Shown here: one piece after another, positions 17,069 through 64,000 of the stretch
How the letters are laid out: every line of letters starts with the position of its first letter
How positions within the stretch are numbered: position 1 is the stretch's first letter
NCBI GenBank assembly: GCA_024679065.1
Contig: JAGIQG010000008.1
Span: forward strand, 48,360,001-48,424,000
DNA length: 64,000 nt
Origin: Sphyrna mokarran
Lineage: Eukaryota
Direction: 5' to 3'
Notes under the pieces: generated by a model
Databases searched by the model: none
Seen by the model: only the letters and a program-made list of their open reading frames with translations
What the model was told of the DNA's origin: nothing
Program-made: the position numbers and the translations under genes

Positions 17069-18126
17069 TGTGCATTGAGGAAGTCTGACCACCAGGAATT
17101 GGGAACCAGTATTGTGCAGGTGGCTGATGGGACCCCGGAGAAGCATTTTACCAGCAGCAGCTAATAAGGAGACCACTGCCAATAACAGCCCATTTCCCAG
17201 AGCTGCCAGCTCAGTCAAAAAGAGTGCAGCTCAGTTTACTTCATAATGGCTGAGGGTGAGGAACATATTCCAGGTACAGTGCCTTATCTATGGGGGTGAT
17301 GCTATTGCCTTCAGACTGAGATGTCCTTGGAAAGGCCAAGGTGGAGGTTCCCCCCCCCCCCCACCCCCCCCCCCCCCCAACTGCTCCCACTCTCTGTGAA
17401 TTCAGTAGGAAGACACCAGAGTTTACTTGATGGTCACCCCATGTGGTAGAGGTCAGTCCCAATGCAGAAGAGGTTTGGGAAGTGAGCCCTAATTGAACAG
17501 TTAAGCGGCTGTATTGCCTGCCCGATGTGTGGTCATGCTACTGTGGTTCCCAGTGGTGATAATATGTCACAACAGAAGGAAAACATTAGGTATCCACCAC
17601 ATTATCAGCATTCCATCCTCCCAGCCCATTGCCAAGGTCTGCTGATATTCAGTCACATGGTTGACAAACCTGGTGTAGAGTTTTTTGAAGTGGGGCCAAA
17701 CAGGTGGGATAAATGCAGTGGATATGATGTGCATGAACCTTTGTGCATGTGCATGGACCTTTGACAGAGGTTCACACAGGACTACTGGAGAAGATTGAAG
17801 TGAATCCACCTCATTGTTCTCTGGGACAGAGTGTTTGGAAGTGCTGGTGGCTGAGTGTGAATTTTTCAATTTGCTTTTTTTCTCTCTCTCTTTTTGAGTG
17901 CTTTTTGCTGCTGTAGTTAGGCCTGGGGCTAGCTGGGAAGGGAACCGGGGAGTATAAAAAGAAAGTGGCAGTAGACAGCGGGCAGCATCGGGAGCAGGCA
18001 GTGTGAATGAATAGGGAAGCAGAGTGAGAGATACAAGGGCTTTGGCTCGCAGGGCTTGGGCTAGAGCAGGCTTACACACAGAGTGCTACTGGTTTTCCAT
18101 TGGAATTCACACCTCCAAAGGTGTCC

Positions 18127-19044
18127 ATGACAATGGCAGGGATTAAGGGAAGACGCCTCGCCTGTGTTACGGTGTCACATGTGGGAGTTCCTGGAGGTGA
18201 GACCTCTCCGGAAAGTCCACGTATGCACCAAGTGTTTGGAGCTGCAGTGTCTGAAGGCTCGGGTCAAGCAACTAGAGCGCCAGTTGGAAGATGCATTTTT
18301 AGTCAGGGAGAACGAGGCAATCATGGAAGGGAGGCAAAGTAAGGTGGCAGACCCGGAGCCTAAGGGGGGGATCCTGACCCTTCCAGGTGGATTACTGTCA
18401 GGAAGTGGAAAAAGGAGAGGGGAAACAGTCCAAAGACTTCCCCAGTAGCAGCCCCCCAAAATATCGAGGGCGGAGGGTTAAAAAAGGCAAGGCATGAGGA
18501 CCAGAGTACCTCAAAGGGAAGGAAAGGGGCTAGAAGGGAGACAGTGGTGGGGGATGGGAGGGTTAAAGGAATAGATAGACGCTTCTGTGGTCCAAGGCGG
18601 GACTCCAGGATGGCAGTTTGCCTCCCTGGAGCAGGGGTGCAAGATGTGTCAGACAGGGTAGAGGGCATTTTGAAGGGTGAGGGGGCCAAGGCGGATGTGA
18701 TTATTCATGTAGGAGAGAAGGATGTAGGAAGAAAGAGCAGGGAGGATATAAGAAGGCAGTTCAGGGAGTTGGGGGGTAGGCTGAAGAACAAGACCTCGAG
18801 GGTGGCGATCTCAGGGCTGCTTCCAGGGCCGGGTAATAGTGGAGCCAGGAGAAATGAGATCCTACAGCTGAATGCGTGGCTGAAGGACTGGTGTAGGGAA
18901 GAGGGTTTCATATTTGTGGATAACTGGGAAGTCTTTGTGAAAGAAGGGCACCTGTATAGAAGGGATGGGGAACACTTGAATGGGAAAGGTGTGAATATCT
19001 TAGCTGGGAGGTTAGCTGGAGTGTTTCAGCAGGATTTAAACTAA
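18127..19044 (+). pseudogene. CR1 ORF1 (zinc finger/leucine zipper and SGNH/GDSL esterase), frameshifted
   Basis: C..CHMWE...HVCTKCLELQCLKARVKQLERQL, then VVGDG, CLPGA, IHVGEKD and LYRRDGEHLN esterase blocks in a separate frame. Confidence 0.85.
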
Positions 19045-19091: not shown

Positions 19092-21955
19092 ATGGGAGAT
19101 AGAGTAAGCTTGGATGAGAAGAGATGCACTGGGGAGAAGGAGGTTCCGAGTTTGCTTGGAGGTCTGGAGTGTGTCTGTTTCAATGCGAGGAGCGTAACGG
19201 GAAAAACAGATGAACTTAGGACCTTAATGTTTGCGAGGAACTTGGATGTGGTTGCAGTGACAGACGTGGTTAAAGGAAGGGGAGCAGTGGCAACTGAACA
19301 TTCCTGGGTATAAGTGTTTCAGGCATGACAGAGGAAGGTCCAGAAGAGGTGGGGGAGTGGCGTTGTTAGTTAAGGAGAGCATCATGGCGGTGCAGAGGGA
19401 GGACAATACAGAGGAGTTAGGAGTGGAGTCACTGTGGGTGGAGTTGAGGAATAGAAAGGGGGCAATTATTATGCTAGGGGTGTATTATAGGCCACCCAAC
19501 AGACCACGGGCAGTTGAAGAAGGCATATGTAAAGACATTTTGGATACGTGCAGAAAGAACAGAATCGTTATAGTGGGAGATTTTAATCTCCCTAGGGTGG
19601 ATTGGAAAGTACCTAGAGCTGGGGGTTTGGACTGGCAGGAATTTGTAAAATGTGTACTGGAAGGATCATTGGAACAGTATGTGGCTAGCCCGACTAGAGA
19701 GGGGGCTACATTGGATTTAGTTCTGAGTAATGAGCCAGGGCAGGTGGTTGATGTTGTAGTGGGGAACATGTAGCTAACAGTGACCACAATTCTGTCTACT
19801 TTAGGATACAGATGGAAAAGGATGCTTGTTGCCCTAGGGTCAGGGTGCTAAATTGGGGGAAGGCTAACTACGGTCGAATTAGGCAGGAATTTAGGGAAAC
19901 TGATTGGGAACGGTTGTTTGAGGGTAAGTCCACGCTAGGCATGTGGGATTCTTTCAAGGGAATACTGAAAATGTTGTAAGATAAGTACGTGCCGACCAAG
20001 AGGAAAGATGGGAAAGGTAGGATTAGAGAGCCGTGGGTTACTAGGGATATTGAGGACTTGGTTAGGAAGAAAAGAGAAGCGTATGATAGGTTGAAGCAGC
20101 TGGGAACCGAGACAGCATTGAAGGAATATAGAGAGAGTAGGAGGGAGCTCAAACTGGGAGTTAGAAGGGCAAAAGGAGGGCATGAAATGATTTTGGCGGA
20201 TAGGATTAAGGAAAACCCAAAGGCTTTTTACTCCTATGTTGGGAATAAAATGGTGGTTAGAGGAAAAATTGGACCTCTTAGGGACAGAAGAGGGGAACTG
20301 TGCTTAGAACCCGAGGGAATGGCGGAGATCCTGAATGAATACTTTGCGTTGGTATTCACAAAGGAGAGGGGCTTGTTGACAGCTCCTGTCTCTGAGGGAG
20401 CTGTGGACCTGTTGAGGGAAATATCCATACTGGGGGAGGAAGTGTTAGAGCTTCTAGGTAGCATTAAAACTGATAAATCTCCTGGGCCTGATGGCATTTA
20501 TCCCAGACTGCTTAGAGAGGTGTGAGGTGAAATTGCTGGGCCTCTGATGCAAATCTTTGTCTCTTCCTTGGACACAGGTGAGGTCCCAGAGGATTGGAGA
20601 ATAGCTAATGTTGTACCGTTGTTTAAAAACGGTGGTAGGGATAACCCTGGAAATTATAGGCCGGTGAGTTTGACGTCAGTGATAGGGAAGCTGTTGGAGG
20701 GGATTCTTAGAGATAGGATGTATAGGCACTTAGAGCGTTGTGATCTGATTAGGGATACGCAGCATGGATTTGTTAAGGGGAGGTTGTGCCTTACATATCT
20801 GGTAGAATTTTTTGAGGAGGTGATGAAAACGGTGGATGAAGGGCGAGCTGTTGATGTCGTCTATATGGATTTTAGTAAGGCGTTTGACAAAGTCCCTCAT
20901 GGGAGGTTAGTCGAGAAGATCAAGGCAAATGGGATACAAGGACAGGTAGCTAGATGGATAAGCAACTGGCTTGGTAATAGGAGGCAGAGAGTAATAGTGG
21001 AAGGGTGTTTTTCTAGCTGGAGGTCGGTCACTAGTGGTGTGCCACAGGGCTCGGTACTGGGACCTCTTCTATTTGTAATATATATAAATGACTTGGAAGA
21101 GGGAGTAAGTGGAGTGATCAGCAAGTTTGCAGACGATACAAAGATGGCTGGACTTGCGGATAGTGAGGAGCATGGTCAGGTGATGCAGCAGGACATAGAT
21201 AGGCTGGTAGCTTGGGCAGACAGATGGCAGATGGAATTCAATCCTGATAAATGTGAGGTGATGCATTTCGGGAGAAAAAATGTAAGGGGGAGGTATATGA
21301 TAAAGGGTAGACCTATTAAGAGTATAGAAATGCAGAGGGACCTGGGGGTGCAGGTGAACAAGTCTCTGAAGGTGGCAGAGCAGGTGGAGAAGGTTGTGAA
21401 AAAAGCATATAGTATGCTAGCCTTTATAGGAAGGGGTATAGAGTACAAGAGCTGGCCTTTAATTTTGCAGTTGTATAAAACGCTGGTTAGACCTCATTTG
21501 GAATACTGCGTCCAGTTCTGGTCGCCTTACTACCGGAAGGACGTGGAGACTCTGGAGAGAGTGCAGAGGAGGTTTACCAGGATGCTGCCTGGTATGGAAG
21601 GTCTGAGTCACGAGGAGAGATTAGGCAAATTGGGACTGTTTTCCTTAGAAAGACGTAGACTTAGAGGAGATCTGATAGAGGTGTACAAGATTTTGAAGGG
21701 GATAGATAGAGTAAACAGGGCTAAGCTTTTGCCTAGGATGGACTCAAATAGCACGAGGGGTCACGGGCTTAGGGTGAGGGGGGTAAGGTATAATTTGGAT
21801 GCTAGAGTGAGTTTTTTCACACAGAGGGTGGTGGGGGGTATGGAATGCGCTGCCAAGTAAAGTGGTGGAGGCAGGTACTCTGGAGTTATTTAAGAAATAC
21901 TTAGATGGGCACATGAACAGAATGGGAATGGAGGGGTATAGAAAACTGATTTAAA
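19092..21955 (+). pseudogene. CR1 ORF2 (APE endonuclease and reverse transcriptase) with about five lesions
   Basis: FNARS, YYRPP, GDFN, NYRPVSLTS, DFSKAFD, GVPQGSVLGP, FADD. Frameshifts at ~19262, ~19770 and ~21835; stops at ~19977 and 20523. Confidence 0.93.
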
Positions 21956-22896
21956 ATAGGGCTCATGAGCTTTGGGAGTCCCTGGGAAGTGTGTAAATAG
22001 ATGATGATATTGATGTACTTGTTTTTATCCTACAGGTGCTTTGGTCCACCTTGTTGTTTAACGAGGGGCATACACGCGATGGGTCGTGAGAGGGCTGCTC
22101 TTGGATCTTTTGAGACTATCCTACTGCTTCACACCGTTAGTGTATGCTTGACCTGGACCATCTGATGAGCAACACGACAGCTCAGTGACTATCGCTGTGC
22201 TGTGCAGATACATGGATTTGGGCCTGTGTCTGTGGAAGTTTGCGCATTCTCCCCGTGCTTGCGTGGGTTTTCTCCGGGTGCTCCGGTTTCCTCCCACATC
22301 CCAAAGATGTACTCTTAGGCTAATTGGCAAAACAAATTCTCTCTAAATTGTCTCAAATTTGGTTTTTAATCCATAGATCTATAAACATGGACAGGGATCG
22401 CGTGTAGAAGTGGGAACATCGAGTTGGCGGCACGGGCTCGTTGGGCCGCAGGGCCTGTTTCCCATGCTGTTTTGTTCTTTGTTCTTTGTATGGAATTAGG
22501 GGAAGATAGCACAATTGGAGTTAACAAATGATGAAAAGGATAGGAACAGAATAAGAGTTAATGCCAGTTCTTCAATGGTTGGAAATGGATAATATCTCTT
22601 CTAAGACAGCTTACATTCATTTTATGGGCAACAGTTTAGATATAATATGAAAGGGAGTAGGGTTCAAATTTGTGGATGATACTAAAACTGGAGATGTGAT
22701 TTACAATGAAAGAGGACATTGAAAAAAAATGTTGGAATGACCACAAAAGCAGGTGACAGAATTCACTAGTGCATTTTGATGCTAAAATTATAAAGAATAA
22801 TGGATTGGAATAAAATTCAGTGATGAGAATAATTCAGGTTCACAAAAACACGAAGGCAAGACTTCAAGTATGTAAAGCTGTAAAACAAAGGTAATT

Positions 22897-24237: not shown

Positions 24238-24629
24238 CGTTTGCCCCAAGACCAGAAATTCCCACCCGAGATCAATGGACCTTTAAATGATCTGCCAAAT
24301 TTTCTGTTGCGCGTATTATGATTCCCAAGGTGAGCACAACCAGAAAATCTCACCCAATATGAAATGTACAAGGTTCAGATTGAGAGCAGGAGAAATATGC
24401 TTTCCACAGAGGATTGAGAGGCTGTAGGATTCACTGCTGGAGTTAACGGTTGGACTAAAGACAGGTACAGGTGAGATCGAAACTCTAATCTCCCTCCCCT
24501 CCTTTCCTTCATGATCCAATTAATTTGGAAACTTCTTATTGGGCTTGTGAATGTCAATCACACTCCTACTAATACATGACACACCACCTGCTGAAATGTT
24601 TCTTGATCATTACATTTTAAAGTTTTAAA

Positions 24630-24918
24630 AAATCTTTATTAGTGTCACAAGTAAGCTTACATTAATGCTGCAGTGAAGTTACTGTGAACATCCCCTAGTT
24701 GCCATGCTCTGGTGCCTGTTTGGGTACACTGAGGGAGAATTTAGCATGTCTAATGCACGTAACCAGCAAGCCTTTTGGGCTGTGGGAGGAAACTGGAACA
24801 CCTACGGGAAACCCATGAGGACTGTGCAAACTCCACACAGGCACTGACCCAAGCCGGGAATCAAACCCGCGTTCCTGGTGCTGTGAGGCAACAATGCTAA
24901 CCACTGTGCCAGCATGCT
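24630..24918 (-). mobile_element. V-SINE with alternative (Rex1/Babar-like) tail
   Basis: HE1-like head and V domain; tail TTTATTAGTGTCACAAGTAAGCTTACATTAA..GTTACTGTGAA. Confidence 0.85.
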
Positions 24919-25269
24919 GCTGTATATAGAAATTACCTTGAGACAGAAGTAGTACAAAGAACTAGTTTTATTTTCACTGAGGAGATACAGAATAGTTAAA
25001 TTCTCTCTCTCTCTCTCCAGTCTTGCAAATGTTCTAGCTATTGGAAAATCTAGGTGTGACACTCCTTTAAACTGGATTGAACAGGGATTTAATATCATTT
25101 TAGGGCTCTGCTCCTTCCTGCTTTTAAATGTGGGAAAAGAGTGTTTCAGCAAGTGCATGATAATGCTGATTCAGAGAGAGGTGTCCTCGATCAGCCAGCA
25201 TCGATACCATTTTACCACCTAAGCATTTGCCTTCCGCAGATCTCAAGATTCATTCAACGTATCTTGGCT

Positions 25270-25539: not shown

Positions 25540-26285
25540 TTTTTCTTTATTTTCCATGGGACGTGGATGTTGCTGGCAGGACCAACATTTGTTGCCCATC
25601 CCTAATTGCCCCTTTAACTTGGGATGGCATGGTGGCACAGTGGTTAGCACTGCTGCCTCACACTAGCAGGGACCTGGATTCAATCCCCGGCTTGGGCACT
25701 GTTTGTGTGGAGTTTGCATGTTGCTCCATACCTGCGTTGGTTTCCTCTGGGTGCTCCAGTTTCCTCCCACAACCTGAAAGACGTGCTGATTAGGTGCATT
25801 GGCCATGCTAAATTCTCCCTCAGTGTACCCGAACAGGGATTTTCACAGTAACTTTGTTGAAGTGTTAATTGCAGTAAGCCTACTTGTGACACTACTAAAT
25901 AAATTTTAAACTTTAAATTGAGTGTCTTGCCCGGCCATTTCAAAGGGCAGTTAAGAGTCATCCACAATTCTGTGGATCTGGATTCTCATGTAGGCCAGAC
26001 CTGGTAAGGATGGAAGATTTCCTTCACTAAAAAACATCAGGGTAGAATTTTCCCGTCCTGACCATCATGGAATTGTAGTAGATGAGATTTTCTGACCTTG
26101 GGGCGAATTCAACCAGAAAATCCCATCCATTAGTGAAGCAGATGGGTTTTCAATGGATGATAATTTCATGGTCACCATTACTGAGACCAGCCATTTTATA
26201 TTCCAGATTTATTGGTTGTTACCAAGATGGAACTTAAACTTGTGTCCCCAGTACGTTAGGGTTATTGTCCTGTGATGCCACCATT
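25540..26285 (-). mobile_element. SINE family B interrupted by a V-SINE and a small MITE
   Basis: Tail at 25540-25615; the body resumes at ~25915. Confidence 0.7.
25621..25905 (+). mobile_element. V-SINE with alternative tail
   Basis: A-box TGGCACAGTGG, B-box GGATTCAATCCC, V domain, tail TTTTCACAGTAAC..CTTGTGACACTACTAAATAAA; flanked by CTTTAA repeats. Confidence 0.88.
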
Positions 26286-32030: not shown

Positions 32031-32504
32031 ACAAATCCCTGCTGAGGAACTATTAATCGCTGCAACACTTGTGGCTGCAGCCAGCAGTATCAGCTTTGGC
32101 TGTCATTTAAAGCTCTTCCTGATAACTTCTCCACTCAGTCTGTGCCCTTCCGATGACTCATGCTACTTGAATACGAATGGGGTTAATCCAGTGAATCTCT
32201 GCTGGCTCTGTGTAGCTCCGCAAACATTAGTCACAAACTAAACTGACTGTCAACCTAAATATCCCAAAAACTGGATGTGGGGGCTGGTTGTTCACAGTGA
32301 CTGATTTTGAAAGCGCTGTGAAGTGGAATCCAGCTTCTCTTGTCTCTGGATGTTGTAGGAACATTCAGTCTCCTTGTCCAGCACTAACAATTACTCACTC
32401 TGCCTTAAAACTTCATGTTTCTAAAAATCACTCCTCGGAGATCTATTTGCTGCCACAGATTCAAGCTCAAGTAGGATCAGCTTCTTGTCCAGCAAACAAC
32501 TAAT

Positions 32505-32800
32505 AAAGTTTATTAGTCACAAGTAGCCTTACATTATCACTGCAATGAAGTTATTGTGAAAATTCCCTCACTGACATGCTCTGGTGCCTATTCAGGTACA
32601 CTGAGGGAGAATTTTGCATGGCCAATGAACTATCCAGCACATCTTTCAATTGTGGGAAGAAACTGGACCATTGGGAGGAAATCCCCACAAACATAGGGAG
32701 AATGTGCAGACTCCACACAGACAGTGATCCAAGCTAGGAATCGAACCTGAGTCCCTGGCGCTGTGAAGCAACAATGCTAACCACCGTGCCACTGTGCCAC
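32505..32800 (-). mobile_element. V-SINE with alternative tail
   Basis: Same organisation as 24630-24918. Confidence 0.85.
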
Positions 32801-32924
32801 CCCCAACAATCCAGCCACTCATCTGCTGGTGTACAAATTCAGAAGAAAATATTCTCAGATGCCTCACTGGGTAAGCTATATTTGTTACTGAATGGCCTTA
32901 ATATAGATAACTTAATGACCAATG

Positions 32925-36200: not shown

Positions 36201-39200
36201 TGGGAAAGCATCTCGGGAATGGTGATCATAATTCTATCACCTTCACGATAGCATTGGAAAGAGATAGGATCAGGCAGGATCAGAAGGTGTTTATCTGGAT
36301 TAGGGGGAAATATGAAATCATCAAGCAGGAAATTGGAAGTGTAAACTGGAAGGAGGTGTTTTTGGGGAAAAGTACTGAAGGAAGGTGGCGGATTTTCAAG
36401 GAATGCACGACAACGTTCTGGTGAGACAGAGAGGTTTTGATAGGTCGAGAGAACCGTGGTGCACAAAGGTTGTGATGAACCTAGTTAGGAAGAAAAGAAA
36501 GTTGTACAATAGGTTCAGGGAGCTAGGAGATGTTAAGGATCTAGAGGCGTATAGGACTTGTAGAAGGGAGCTTAAAAAGGAAATTCGAAGAGCCAGAAGG
36601 AGTCACGAGAAGGCTTTGGCGGGTAGGAGTAAGGAAAATCCCAAAGCATTCTACAAATATGTGAAGAGTAAAAGGATGAGAAGAGAAGGGATAGGACCTA
36701 TAAAAGGTGAAGGGGGAAAAGTCTGTGTGGAACCAGAAGAAATGGCAGAGGTGCTTAATAAGTACATTGCCTCAGTATTCACAGTGGAAAGTGATCAGGG
36801 GGGTTGTACTACAGGATTGCAGCAAATGAAAAGATTGAGTATGTGGACATTAAGAAAGAGGAGGTGTTGGAACTGTTAACATAGAACATAGAACATAGAA
36901 CAATACAGCACAAACAGGCCCTTCGGCCCACGAGTTGCACTGATCACATCTACCAATCCACAGACCTATCTATAACCCCCTATCCTATTCGTTTCCACAT
37001 ACTCATCCAGAAGTCTTTTAAAAGACCCCAGCAAGTTTGCCTCAACAACCTCTGATGGCAGCCGATTCCATTCACTCACCACCCTCTGAGTGAAAAACTT
37101 ACCCCTATCATCTCCTCTGTATTTGCTTCCCTGTACCTTAAATCTGTGTCGTCTCATAGTGACCATTTCAGCTCGGGGAAATAGTCTCAGAGAGTCCACC
37201 CTATCCATTCCTTTCAACATTTTATAAACCTCTACCAGGTCGCCTCTCAACCTACGTCTCTCCAGTGAGAAGAGTCCCAGCTCCCTCAACCTATCTTCAT
37301 AAGGCCTGCCTCCCAATCCAGGCAGCATCCTTGTAAATCTCCTCTGAACTCTCTCAATAGCCTCTACATCCTTCTATAATGAGGCGACCAGAACTGCGCA
37401 CAATACTCCAACTGGGGTCTGACAAGAGTCTTATAGAGCTGCATCATTACCTCCTGACTCCTAAACTCTATTCCTTGATTAATGAAGGCCAGTACACTGT
37501 ACGCCTTCTTGACCACTTCCTCCACCTGCGAGGCCGATTTAAGAGTCTTATGTACCTCGACCCCGAGGTCCTTCTGCTCTACAACACAGCTAAGACTCCT
37601 ACCCCTTATATTGTACTCCTTCATCCCATTATTCCTGCCAGAATGGACCACTACACATTTATCTGCGTTGAAGTCCATCTGCCACTTCTCCGCCCAGTCT
37701 TGCATCCTAAATTCCATCAAGGTTAAATGCCATCAAGGTAGATAAGTTGCCAGGTCCAGATGGGATGTACCCCAGATTACTGTGAGAGATGAGGGAAGTG
37801 ATTGCAGAGCGCCTGGCGATGATCTTTGCGTCGTCAATGGACATGGGAGAGGTTCCGGAAGATGGGAGGATTGCGGACGTGGTGCCTATTTTCAAGAAGG
37901 GGAACAGGGATAGCCCGGCAATTACCGACCAGGGAGTCTGACCTCAGTGGTCGGTAAGTTGATGGAGTGGATTCTGAGAGATAGGATTTATGAGCATTTA
38001 GAGAAGTTCAATATGATCAGAAAGAGTCAACACGGCTTTGTTAAGGGCAGATCGTGTCTTACGAGCCCAGTCGAGTTCTTCAAAAATGTGACAGAACACA
38101 TTGACGAAGGAAGAGCAGTGGACGTGGTTTACATGGATTTCAGCAAGGTGTTTGATAAGGTCCCCCATGCAAGACTTCTTGAGAAGGTGAGAGGGCATGG
38201 GATCCAAGGGGCTTTGGCCTTGTGGATCCAGAACTGGCTTGCCTGCAGAAGGCAGAGAGTAGTTGTGGATGGGTCTTCTTCTGCATGGAGGTCAGTCGCC
38301 AGTGGAGTGCTCCAGGGATCTGTTCTAGGACCCTTGCTGTTTGTTATTTTCACAAATGACCTGGATGAGGAAGTGGAGGGATGGGTTAGTAAGTTCGCCA
38401 ACGATACAAAGGTTGGTGGTGTTGTGGATAGTCTGGAGGGATGTCTGAAGTTGCAGCGAGACATAAATAGGATGCAAGACTGGGCGGAGAAGTGGCAGAT
38501 GGACTTCAATGCGGATAAATGTGTGGTGGTCCATTTTGGCAGGACCAATGGGATGAAGCATTATAGTATCAAGGGTAGGAGTCTTGGCAGTGTTGAGGAG
38601 CAGAAGGATCTTGGGGTCCGGGTCCATAGGAGTCTTAAATCTGCTCCGCAAGTGGAGGATGTGGTCAAGAAGGCAGATGGTGTACTGGCCTTCATTAATT
38701 GAGAGATTGAGTTTAGGAGTCGGAGGTAATGATGCAGCTTTATAAGACCCTTGTCAGACCCCACTTGGAGTACTGTGTGCAGTTCTGGTGGCTTCACTAT
38801 AGGAAGGATGTGGAAGCTATTGAGAGGGCGCAGCGGAGATTTACAAGGATGTTGCCTGGATTGGGGGGCATGCCTTATGAAGATAGGTTGAGAGAGCTAG
38901 GTCTCCTCCCTGGAGAGACGAAGGTTGAGAGGCGACCTGATAGAGGTTTATAAGATGTTGAGAGGAATAGATAGAGTGGATTCTTGGAGGCTATTTTCCA
39001 GGGCTGAAATGGTCACTACGAGAGGACACAGGTTTAAGGTGCTAGGGGGCAAGTACAGAGGAGATGTTAGAGGTAAGTTTTTCACTCTGAGGGTGGTGAG
39101 TGTATGGAATCGGCTGCCGTCAGTGGTGGTAGAGGCGAACTCGCTGGGGTCTTCTAAGAGACTTGTGGATGAGTACATGGGATGTAATGGGATTGGGAGT

Positions 39201-39290
39201 TACAGATAGTTCTATGGCCTGGTAAGTACAGATTTGATCGGCACAACTTGTGGGCCGAAGGGCCTGTTTGTGCTGTAGTGTTCTATTTCT
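36201..39290 (+). mobile_element. 5'-truncated CR1 (end of EN, full RT, short 3' UTR), disabled
   Basis: LGNGDHN, KENPKAFYKY; ORF 37947-38702 with QHGF, DFSKVFD, GVLQGSVLGP, FAND; ~80-nt 3' UTR with hairpin. Confidence 0.92.
36880..37707 (-). mobile_element. Inverted CR1 3' fragment of the same family nested in the 36201-39290 copy
   Basis: Minus ORFs MQDWAEKWQMDFNADKC and MLPGLGGRPYEDRL; (CATAGAA)n tail at 36880-36900. Confidence 0.92.
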
Positions 39291-40199
39291 ATGTTCTCCT
39301 TGTGTCTGCATAGGTTTCCTCTGGGTGTTCCTGTTTCCTCCCACAGTCCGAAAGATGTACTGGTTAGGTGCATTGGCCATGCTAAATTCTCCCTCAATGT
39401 ACCCTGTAGGTGCTGGAATATGACGAGTAGGGGATTTTCACAATAACTTCATTGCAGGGTTACGTAAGCCTACTTGTGATAATAATAAATAAACTTAAGC
39501 TTCAATGTGTTAGGAAGGCCCTTCAAAAAATGGCTGCACATTTCAGCTTCACGAATATAATTAGTTACCTCTAGCATAATCATTCCATTTCAAATCCAAG
39601 AGAAGCACATTTAAGATATTTGATCCCAGTCACACAGCAATTATTTCACTATTACTGTAAAGCAGCTTTACACCAGGAAGCTGTGACAGAAATCTAAATC
39701 TCAAGTCAGAAAGGAAGACAGATTATCAAAACAAACTACCACTCATAAAGACTTCTTAGGACTGCAAATATGATGCTGATTTCAGTACATCTTACTGAGG
39801 ACCACAAGACCATAACTGAATACAAAACTATTTTTAATACTGACCCACCAATGCATTGTTTAGAGTGGAAAATCATTGATCAATCAGCTGAATAACTTCA
39901 GCCAGCAGACTGCATTACAAGAATAATAGTTCGGGGACACCAGGATATTCCTGGGTTTGTGGTCACTGATCTGGGGTTACGGTCTGCCTGCAAGGTTCTG
40001 ATCCAAAGGGATCGACGTCCTGTTGAGAGCTTCAGTATTACATACCACCACGTAACGCGAGAGTGGTTTCTGCTGTGCTGTAATGCAGAAAGCAAACTGT
40101 AACCACAGCTGAACCTACTTCAGATCAGGACTTCTACCCAACCATAACTGAGAGCCACTTGAAGATTGAGAAGAATTTGGTGAATGCTGCTGAGGAAAG

Positions 40200-46170: not shown

Positions 46171-46899
46171 GCGGGCTTAGGGTGAGGGGGATAAGGTATA
46201 ATTTGGATGCTAGAGAGAGTTTTTTCACACAGAGGGTGGTGGGGGTATGGAATGCGCTGCCAAGTAAAGTGCTGGAGGCAGGTACTCTGGAGTTATATAA
46301 GAAATACTTAGATGGGCACATGAACAGAATGGGAATGGACGGGTATAGAAAACTGATTTAAAATAGGGATCATGAGTCTTGGAAGTCCCTGGGACGTGTG
46401 TAAATAGATGATGATATTGATGTACTTGTTTTTATCTTCGAGGTGCTTTGGTCCACCTTGTTGTCTAACGAGGGGCATACACGGGATGGGTTGTGAGAGG
46501 GCTGCTCTTGGATTTTTTCGAGAGTATCCTAGTGCTTCACGTCGTTGCTGTACGCTTGACCTGGACCATTTGATGGGCAACACGACAGCTCAGTGACTAT
46601 CGCTGTGCTGTGCAGATGCATGGATTTGGGCCTATGTCTGTGCGAGTTTGCGCATTCTCCCCGTGCTTGCGTGGGTTTTCTCCGGGTGCTCCGGCTTCCT
46701 CCTACATCCCAAAAATGTGTTCTTAGGCTAATTGGCAAAACAAATTCTCCCTAAATTGTCTCAAATTTGGTTTTTAATCCATGGATCTATAAACACAGAC
46801 AGGGATCACGGGTAGAGATGGGAGCATCGGGGTGGCAGCGTGGTCTCATTGGGCCGAAGGGCCTGTTTCCCGTGCTGTTTTGTTCTTTGTTCTTTGTTC
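46171..46899 (+). mobile_element. 5'-truncated copy of the chimeric-3'-UTR CR1
   Basis: Near-identical to 21764-22487, including the ORF2 end, long UTR and (TTCTTTG)n tail. Confidence 0.92.
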
Positions 46900-57967: not shown

Positions 57968-58940
57968 AACATAAGAACATAAGAACTAGAACAGGTGTAG
58001 ATCAAGTGGCCTCTTGAATCTATTCCTCCATTCAATAAAATCAAAGACAAAGCACCATGGGAAACAGGCCCTTCGGCCCAACGAGCCCGCGCTGCCACCT
58101 CGATGTTCCCATCTCTACCCGTGATTTCTGTCATCCCTGTCTATGTTTATAGATCTATGCATTAGACCCAAATTTGAGACAATTTAGGGAGAATTTGTTC
58201 TGCCAATCAGCCTAAGAGCACATCTTTGGGATGTGGGAGGAAACCGGAGCACCCGGAGAAAACCCACACAAGCACGGGGAGAATGCGCAAACTCCCACAG
58301 ACACAGGCCCAAATCCATGTGTCTGCACAGCACAGCGATAGTCACTGAGCTGTCGTGTTGCCCATCAGATGGTCCAGATCAAGCGTACGCCAACAACACG
58401 AAGCACTATGCTACTCTCAAAATCCAAGAGCAGCCCTATCATGATGCATTGCGTGTATGCCCCTTGTTAGACAAGGCGAACCGAAGTACCTGTAGGATAA
58501 AACAAATACATCAATGTCATTGACAATTTACACACTTCCCAGGGATCTTCCAAGGCTCATGATGCCTATTTTAAATCAGTTTTCTATATTCCTCCATTCC
58601 CATTCTCCATGGCTGATCTTTTCGTGGACTTAGCTCCACTTACCCGTCCATTCACCATAACCCTTCATTCTTTTACTGTACAAAAATTTATCTGTCCTTG
58701 CCTTAAAAAAATTCAATGAGGTAGCCTCAATGGCTTCGCTGGGCATGGAATTCCACAGATTCACAACCCTTTGGATGAAGAAGTTCGTCCTCAACTCAGT
58801 CCTAAATCTGCTCCCCATTATTTTGAGGCGATGTCTCCTAGTTTCAGTTTCACATGCCAGTGGAAACAACTTTCTGCTTCTATCTTATGTACTCCCTTCA
58901 TAATCCTTTATGGTTCTATAAGATCTCCCTTCATTCTTCC
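57968..58940 (-). mobile_element. CR1 3' fragment interrupted in its tail by the chimeric-UTR CR1
   Basis: (CATAAGAA)n tail; minus ORF 58630-58869 RFRTELRTNFFIQRVVNLWN; CCATTCAATAAAATCA|TGGCTGATC is split by the insert. Confidence 0.8.
58043..58606 (-). mobile_element. Third copy (mostly 3' UTR) of the chimeric-UTR CR1
   Basis: Reverse complement of ~21920-22480. Confidence 0.9.
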
Positions 58941-62523: not shown

Positions 62524-63689
62524 TCTGAAATGAGGTTCTTTTCATTCAAACAGGGCTTTGAAGACGAACATATTGTGTACAGTTTGAGAAATTATTCCAC
62601 CTGAGAATGCATTTTAAGATCCTGAGGCTATATTGCATTAAATGGTCAGAAATAATCCATCTCACAAACGTAACAGATAAAACTGCTGTGGTATGGGGGG
62701 TGGGGGCGGGGTGATGTGTTTGGGGGTCGCGGGGGTGGGAGGGGCAAGTTTCTATGATTTGGATTATGTGAAGAGCAGCAAGGATGGTATTGGAGAAACG
62801 TGGGTGGGGGAGGGTGTATTGGATGCAAAAAGAGCAAGATAATGGTTTCAGTGATGTTTGAATTGTTCTCAGGATGAAGGCAGACAAGGTGGAATTAAAA
62901 TGTTCCTTGGAGTTGGATAGGGTATGGGATGTGGCCGGCATTGTGTTAAATCATGCAGGGCATATGGTTCAGTCTGGGAGACCAGTTATCAAAGGGATGG
63001 AGTACGAAATATCTGGAGTTTCTGGTGTGGGTGCAAAAAAAAGCATGTTACACCGAAATGAGCAGAGCCGTCCTGAAAATCAGGTCCTAATGAAGATTTC
63101 CAAAGTATTTCTTGATGAAATACTTTGATGTAAAAAAAATGTTTGGGGCATGGGTCTCCACTGATCTTATAAGCCTGTTCTATAATCTTGTCATTAGCCC
63201 AAGAAAATCCACAGAAGCTTAGAGTAAGTCTGTCAATCTCTGCAGAGGGAACAGGAAGGCTTTGACATCTTGGGTGTGTACAGTTCACCGAAACCTGACA
63301 ATATTTTGTTGCACATTTTTCCTCAGAAAGAGAATGTGAAATGCCACTCAAAGAATGAATGGGAACAATGCATATTTATATAGCTGTTGTACCTGGAGCA
63401 AATGTGCTTAGAGTAGGATAATATCTCAGAACGCTTAGGGGAGGGAATATTGTTCTGCTTGCTTATAGAATTCCGAAACAATCCGGTAGACTTACAACTT
63501 GGCACCTCAGATGGAATTAAATGAAACAGTTGTGGTTTCTTTTTTAACAGTCCCTTTCATTAATGGGAGGCTAATCCATGTTGCAAGTTTCATTTGATGC
63601 GATATGTCGAAAATATAATAATAGTTAATATAACTGTGAGATAAATGGTTTAGTTATATTTTATATAAATGCTGATCAATATTCTTCCT

Positions 63690-63997
63690 TAAGTTTATTT
63701 ATTTATTGTCACAAATAGGCTTACATTAACACTGCAGTGAAGTTACTGTGACAATCCCCTAGTAGCCACACTTTGGTGCCTGTTCAGGTACACAGAGGGA
63801 GAACTTAACATGGTCAATGCATTTAACTAGCACATCTTTCAGACTGTGGGAGAAAACTGGAGCACTTGGAGGAAATCCACGCAGACATGGGGACAAAGTG
63901 CAGACTCCACACAGATAGTGTCTCAAGCCAGGAATCGAATCCAGGTTCCTGGTGTTGTGAGGCAGTAATGCTAACCACCATGCTACCATGCTGCCCA
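63690..63997 (-). mobile_element. V-SINE with alternative tail
   Basis: Same organisation as 24630-24918. Confidence 0.88.
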
Positions 63998-64000
63998 TAC

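Follow-up and report, generated by a model that had tools for sequence, protein, structure and literature searches.

A 64,000-nucleotide stretch of the Sphyrna mokarran genome (the window) contains a CR1-type LINE whose 3' untranslated region (UTR) holds sequence resembling the head and V domain of a V-SINE. The locus raises the question of how SINE sequence came to lie within a coding retrotransposon, whether the two amplify together, and why the V domain has persisted there. An earlier note on this DNA had proposed that the LINE absorbed a whole V-SINE by read-through and adopted its tail.

Layout of the composite element

The element has the features of a CR1-type LINE, namely endonuclease and reverse transcriptase in ORF2, an esterase-like ORF1, a 3' hairpin with short tandem repeats, and frequent 5' truncation. 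Above the Pfam cut-off, ORF2 contains Exo_endo_phos and RVT_1 (E=2e-32). An esterase-like ORF1 domain is a feature of vertebrate CR1 and L2 elements; here it lies in the second ORF1 piece (18364–19041; Lipase_GDSL_2, SGNH/GDSL esterase-like, Pfam E=1e-8), and a Pfam search of the first piece (18028–18339) returned no family. We take the element to belong to the CR1 clade; our trees contain elements of this genome alone. ORF2 of the window copy is disabled by in-frame stops and frameshifts, and in the composite family it ends with a TAG stop at 21957–21959. Just upstream of ORF1, a pyrimidine-rich stretch with a TATA-like motif (window 17850–17960) probably marks the 5' end of the element. The features are as follows, with families A to D denoting the composite families described below.

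18028–19041 (+): ORF1 region of the near full-length window copy, broken by stop/frameshift
19100–21959 (+): ORF2, endonuclease and reverse transcriptase (start coordinate approximate; from Pfam, the stop list and the family consensus frame)
21960–22007 (+): variable first part of the insert, from alignments; about 80 nt longer in B and C, entirely deleted in D
22008–22042 (+): splice-acceptor-like pyrimidine tract ending CAG/G at 22033–22036, present in all four families
22043–22159 (+): predicted structured RNA module, a three-way junction plus a long hairpin (fold z, covariation)
22167–22226 (+): tRNA-derived head of a V-SINE, now a relic with 2 mismatches in the A box and the B box lost by an 18-nt deletion; predicted hairpins kept
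22227–22298 (+): V domain core; 67/72 to the free HE1-like consensus, 67–70/72 among composite families
22299–22345 (+): post-V, the final SINE-homologous stretch; 32–36 of 46–48 to the free SINE consensus
22346–22425 (+): fast-evolving, family-specific linker, 75–135 nt across families; no alignment to the free SINE 3' body
22426–22488 (+): the LINE lineage's own tail, a hairpin plus 7-nt terminal repeats
46172–46899 (+): second copy, 5'-truncated, family A; 90–97% identical to the window copy
58027–58606 (−): third copy, 5'-truncated, older A subfamily; 81–95% identical to the window copy

Several observations of the earlier note hold. It had described an unusually long UTR, and about 490 nt separate the ORF2 end from the tail hairpin here, versus at most about 50 nt in the window CR1 ends at 39200, 59579 and 36960 (minus). 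The degenerate SINE-like head starting at 22167, with its B box missing, was confirmed, as was recurrence of the composite in the window as independent 5'-truncated insertions. Local BLAST recovers spacer, head, V domain and tail again at 46363–46897 (+) and 58569–58027 (−), with a short ORF2 end before each, and both of these copies are truncated inside ORF2.

Families, copy number and a single gain

The spacer used as query gave 1870 first-look candidate matches in the 2.77 Gb genome. ORF2 lay upstream in all 29 non-self loci listed, and 28 of the 29 continued through the V domain and tail, in agreement with the earlier claim that the composite moves as one unit; a single copy among these spacer-picked loci (L025) was interrupted. 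Flanks and truncation points differed in 29/29 cases, which rules out an origin of the composite by segmental duplication. From the coding side, the full UTR was present in 17 of the 19 best non-self reverse transcriptase (RT) matches. None of 95 RT matches had an ORF2 open over its full length (longest open frame, 848 aa), so present-day activity of the composite LINE does not follow from these sequences.

Four composite families were distinguished. Family B was found next to one locus, at 79% ORF2 identity, and family C through the single match to a pattern of spacer end followed by B box. The family C head is 18 nt longer than the others and colinear with the free SINE (50/73 positions); ORF2 lies directly upstream in 21 of 30 family C loci, the others being truncated or interrupted. 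In family D, which includes a very young subfamily, D2, the first spacer part is missing. The best-matching copies, a set biased towards top matches, were on average 99.3% identical to their family consensus in D2, 97.4% in A, 93.3% in B and 92.1% in C, and 93.6% in a short-UTR family, S. We note that D2 (L193–L212; L133, L140), the youngest composite subfamily, ends in an A-run in place of the 7-nt repeats.

Copy number was scaled from an 800-kb sample, made up of 80 regularly placed 10-kb stretches on five large contigs, which held 15–17 spacer matches and 150 V loci, 19 of them composite. The composite lineage (families A–D) accordingly comprises roughly 50,000–65,000 copies, and free V copies number roughly half a million genome-wide. 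All 19 composite V loci were classed by composite head or by linker plus tail, and the spacer-bearing ones extend upstream into spacer or ORF2 unless truncated. LINEs account for about 13% of the V domains here (19/150 in 800 kb), and annotation would wrongly assign these to SINEs. Part of the UTR, not necessarily joined to ORF2, was also found in sequencing runs (20 of the 23 rows listed). Two other organisms had shares of 0.59 and 0.46 and several more had shares near 0.3; small shares were left unused.

The main ORF2 tree comprised 1043 columns and 48 rows, with a maximum of seven per family plus 14 outgroups, and was midpoint-rooted; one duplicate row and a nested chimera (L205) were excluded. 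In this tree, the 28 carrier rows formed one clade (100/100) whose sister was family S (100/99). Within it, the 21 rows with a deleted B box formed one clade (99/98), and the seven rows keeping the B-box region were basal and paraphyletic, their monophyly being rejected (AU p=0.003). A 300-nt tree gave the same branching order, and a 560-nt tree, from which the length filter had removed family C, grouped carriers at 63/73. The excluded L205 is 98% identical to D2 over 200 nt and then continues as another CR1; it is a short-UTR CR1 fragment lying inside a D2 ORF2 at about the homologous position, with an in-register junction (L205:655–1105).

Since short UTRs are present in four separate outgroup lineages, the simplest reading is that V-SINE sequence was taken up once by a CR1-type LINE lineage. 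The trees also establish the order of promoter decay: a full-length but damaged head came first and the B-box deletion second, the deletion occurring once. With one ORF2 clade, and with spacer loci joined to ORF2, the earlier note was right that a coding CR1-type LINE acquired V-SINE sequence and amplified with it; its direction, from SINE to LINE, is borne out by the basal family with its uninterrupted head.

Tail, head, V domain and spacer

The earlier note went too far in holding that a whole V-SINE had been absorbed and that the SINE tail had become the new RT recognition site. SINE homology ends at 22345, 47 nt past the V domain, and the linker cannot be aligned to the free SINE 3' body. 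The 63-nt tails match sister family S at 55 (A), 56 (B) and 57 (C) of 63 positions versus 44–45/61 for the free HE1-like SINE (for C, p=0.011), and their 7-nt terminal repeat is the same as in family S. Because the tail is S-like and SINE homology stops at 22345, the acquired cassette is bounded by the ORF2 stop on one side and by the LINE's own tail on the other. The embedded segment itself aligns to the SINE consensus, as the note had expected, through the V core and the family C head. The composite differs from an HE1-type V-SINE in that it neither has a SINE 3' body of its own nor moves as a short unit. We take the free SINEs to be HE1, following the earlier note, and they fit the HE1 description.

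These results bear on the leading alternative, read-through capture, in which the LINE was transcribed into a downstream V-SINE mobilised by the same CR1 lineage and the SINE tail became its 3' end. Such a capture would fit a head whose first position coincides with the SINE 5' end, and the spacer could then be flanking genomic DNA; a SINE partner of family S, possibly extinct, would moreover carry an S-like tail, so tail identity alone is not decisive. The predicted partner did not appear, however. The 131 free V loci of the 800-kb sample comprised 51 with an HE1-like tail (3 assigned by eye), 19 with a second tail type and 61 with none recognised. The composite tail was not seen as a SINE's own tail among the 131, of which 70 had a recognisable tail; of the remaining 61, the 38 with a free head were inspected and none showed it. 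A genome-wide pattern of intact head plus LINE-type tail (exact match, one spacing range of 240–270 nt) gave 13 matches, each of which proved to be a LINE 3' end lying within or behind a free SINE. Neither family B nor family C shows a remnant of an older LINE tail after the ORF2 stop, and the linker aligns to neither free SINE 3' body. We therefore regard read-through capture as unlikely.

Three further observations concern joins between LINEs and free SINEs. In six of the 13 pattern matches (L213, L214, L216, L217, L220 and L223, at about 1500–1800), a 5'-truncated composite LINE end abuts, in register, V or post-V sequence of a free SINE. These junctions yield an intact head and V domain with LINE linker and tail, and in five of them the rest of the host SINE follows; they are a possible route for SINE tail exchange, and the spacing of the pattern favours such cases. 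The window also holds a second family of free V-SINEs, at 24560–24960 (−), 25620–25910 (+), 32420–32850 (−) and 63600–64000 (−), which shares the head of the first but has a non-CR1-like tail ending A-rich. At 39150–39500, a short-UTR CR1 3' end is followed by a headless V-SINE remnant, which is probably a CR1 insertion into a SINE and a chance look-alike of the composite in reversed order.

The captured head has lost the intact promoter of a V-SINE. Both free families show 0 mismatches in the A and B boxes. Family C has two in each box; in A, B and D an 18-nt deletion removes the B box. Counted against today's free consensus, from which the actual donor SINE may have differed, the family C head has changed at 23 sites, including the two in each promoter box. 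The predicted fold of the head and V start is nevertheless more stable, at −41.3 kcal/mol in family C versus −37.5 in the free SINE, with the same arms, and only 4 of 2000 random 23-substitution mutants with the same transition share were as stable as the family C head. From C through B to A and D, the families record how a LINE disarmed a captured promoter and kept its predicted fold.

The V domain is conserved in excess of silent sites. Between families, V identity is 93–97% (67–70/72) versus 60–79% at fourfold-degenerate ORF2 sites, and the excess is seen in all six family pairs (p from 5e-3 to 2e-7; pairs not independent). The linker just downstream of V is not conserved. The conserved V domain of HE1-type SINEs spans about 80 nt; against the free-family consensus of this genome, V matches at 65–69/72. 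Head plus V folds at z of −2.5 to −5.2, and a terminal hairpin with an internal loop is predicted in three of the four folds of V alone and in all four of head plus V; it resembles the hairpin that PMC4758252 reports in the block of V that is most conserved. A V domain inside a coding LINE evolves beside an internal clock, the silent sites of ORF2, so that its constraint becomes measurable.

Such conservation could also arise in a neutral passenger, if the roughly half a million free copies kept the V domain uniform through gene conversion or recombination. Potential donors are dense (150 V loci in 800 kb), and LINE 3' ends do join free V domains in register. Nine columns of V and post-V, three of them in the V core, are nevertheless common to all four composite families and differ from both free families, which argues against continual conversion from free SINEs. 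The remodelled head, for which there is no free donor, is also conserved (87–95% among A, B and D2), and its substitutions preserve the fold. We consider a neutral passenger slightly less likely than read-through capture.

The spacer, which the earlier note had called unrelated sequence, instead has an acceptor-like signal that is conserved and a 117-nt module with a predicted fold. The module (22043–22159) folds at z of −2.3 to −4.4 in five family representatives. Over its 47 predicted pairs, these five sequences show four compensatory and 14 one-sided changes and 14 pairs with a non-standard cell. Compared with silent sites, the module is no better conserved in pairs with D2 (69–74%). An Rfam search of the spacer gave no match near threshold (best E=3). 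All 30 pattern-picked module loci run on into the SINE head; an evolutionary stage with module but without SINE was thus found in 0/30.

The acceptor-like site could point to a role at the DNA or splicing level, in which acceptor and V domain let host transcripts pick up copies or bind a host factor, thereby favouring master copies. The family D deletion covers the spacer up to the pyrimidine tract and CAG, which stay, and host-side roles of conserved SINE domains have been proposed (PMC6887750, PMC4758252). Spliced retrocopies, however, were not seen: none of 30 loci begins at the acceptor-like site, and we rejected spliced short derivatives on this count. The fold-preserving changes, for their part, point to RNA structure, and we judge such a role improbable. 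The reverse direction, in which V was native to the LINE UTR and V-SINEs derive from it, would extend a proposal of LINE origins for SINE bodies (PMC5786205, which knows no LINE source for the conserved ones), but we consider it refuted for this lineage by the decaying tRNA-type head that accompanies V, the nesting of carriers among short-UTR CR1s, and the range of V-SINEs from cnidarians to fish (PMC4824008).

Proposed history and comparison with known systems

We consider it probable, from the sequence comparisons above, that the cassette was gained once and that selection on the LINE RNA then removed the Pol III promoter and kept the fold and the V domain, which likely aid retrotransposition. 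The cassette would comprise the acceptor-like signal, the predicted structured module, and the V-SINE head and V domain, set between ORF2 stop and LINE tail. It may have entered by template switching during reverse transcription, with synthesis passing from the tail to a foreign RNA (SINE plus upstream flank) and then returning to ORF2. Alternatively, it may have been inserted into a master copy and the SINE 3' part lost afterwards. An intact internal promoter upstream of a cognate tail would have let every copy produce a short SINE RNA in competition with the LINE, and this competition may have led to promoter loss. The V and head fold would act in cis, affecting the stability of the RNA or the assembly of the RNP. 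Stringent LINEs recognise the loop of their cognate tail (PMC4176376), which fits the retention of the lineage's own LINE tail.

For the persistence of conserved SINE domains, three competing models have been set out: aid in LINE interaction, a recombination hot spot, or host benefit (PMC5499810). More tentatively, and with some doubt, we suggest that the V domain, which is conserved in the SINEs of diverse animals, is a portable cis RNA structure that raises retrotransposition; that this CR1 lineage domesticated it through fold-preserving substitutions silencing the Pol III promoter, followed by deletion; and that truncated copies re-join free SINE heads at V, giving SINEs a new LINE tail. 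Within a LINE, V is open to deletion in a retrotransposition assay in cis, which would make this long-unexplained sequence testable.

In the literature searched, we found no account of a V domain within the 3' UTR of a CR1 element; an unpublished entry in a repeat library may exist. The passages of PMC5753468 consulted contain nothing on such an element, and the main text of PMC5786205, a Repbase comparison of LINEs and SINEs, reports no LINE holding a V domain and no sequence similar to the conserved SINE bodies. Related systems have been described. The HE1 V-SINE and HER1 LINE of sharks and rays (listed in a table of PMC3747384) share with the composite a tRNA-type head, a V domain and a CR1-type hairpin tail. 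There, however, the SINE borrows the LINE tail, whereas here the LINE 3' UTR contains the SINE head and V, with the promoter disabled. Zebrafish ZfL2-1 and ZfL2-2 (PMC4176376), examples of stringent tail recognition, likewise have a conserved 3' hairpin tail but belong to another clade. Ingi-3_AC, with a Ceph-SINE-like 5' UTR, and RTE-1_DAn, with tRNA-like sequence (PMC5786205), are LINE consensus sequences containing SINE-related or tRNA-like sequence. Unlike the composite, they hold it in the 5' UTR or at an unspecified position, without a V domain and without staged promoter loss. The closest known system is MER6/MER6A, a Mariner-derived MITE with a V-SINE segment (PMC6887750); there too, a transposable element of another kind picked up V and multiplied it as it amplified. 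MER6 is a long-inactive DNA element without coding capacity, whereas the composite described here is a protein-coding retrotransposon that moved through an RNA intermediate, formed successive families, and carries a V domain under measurable constraint.
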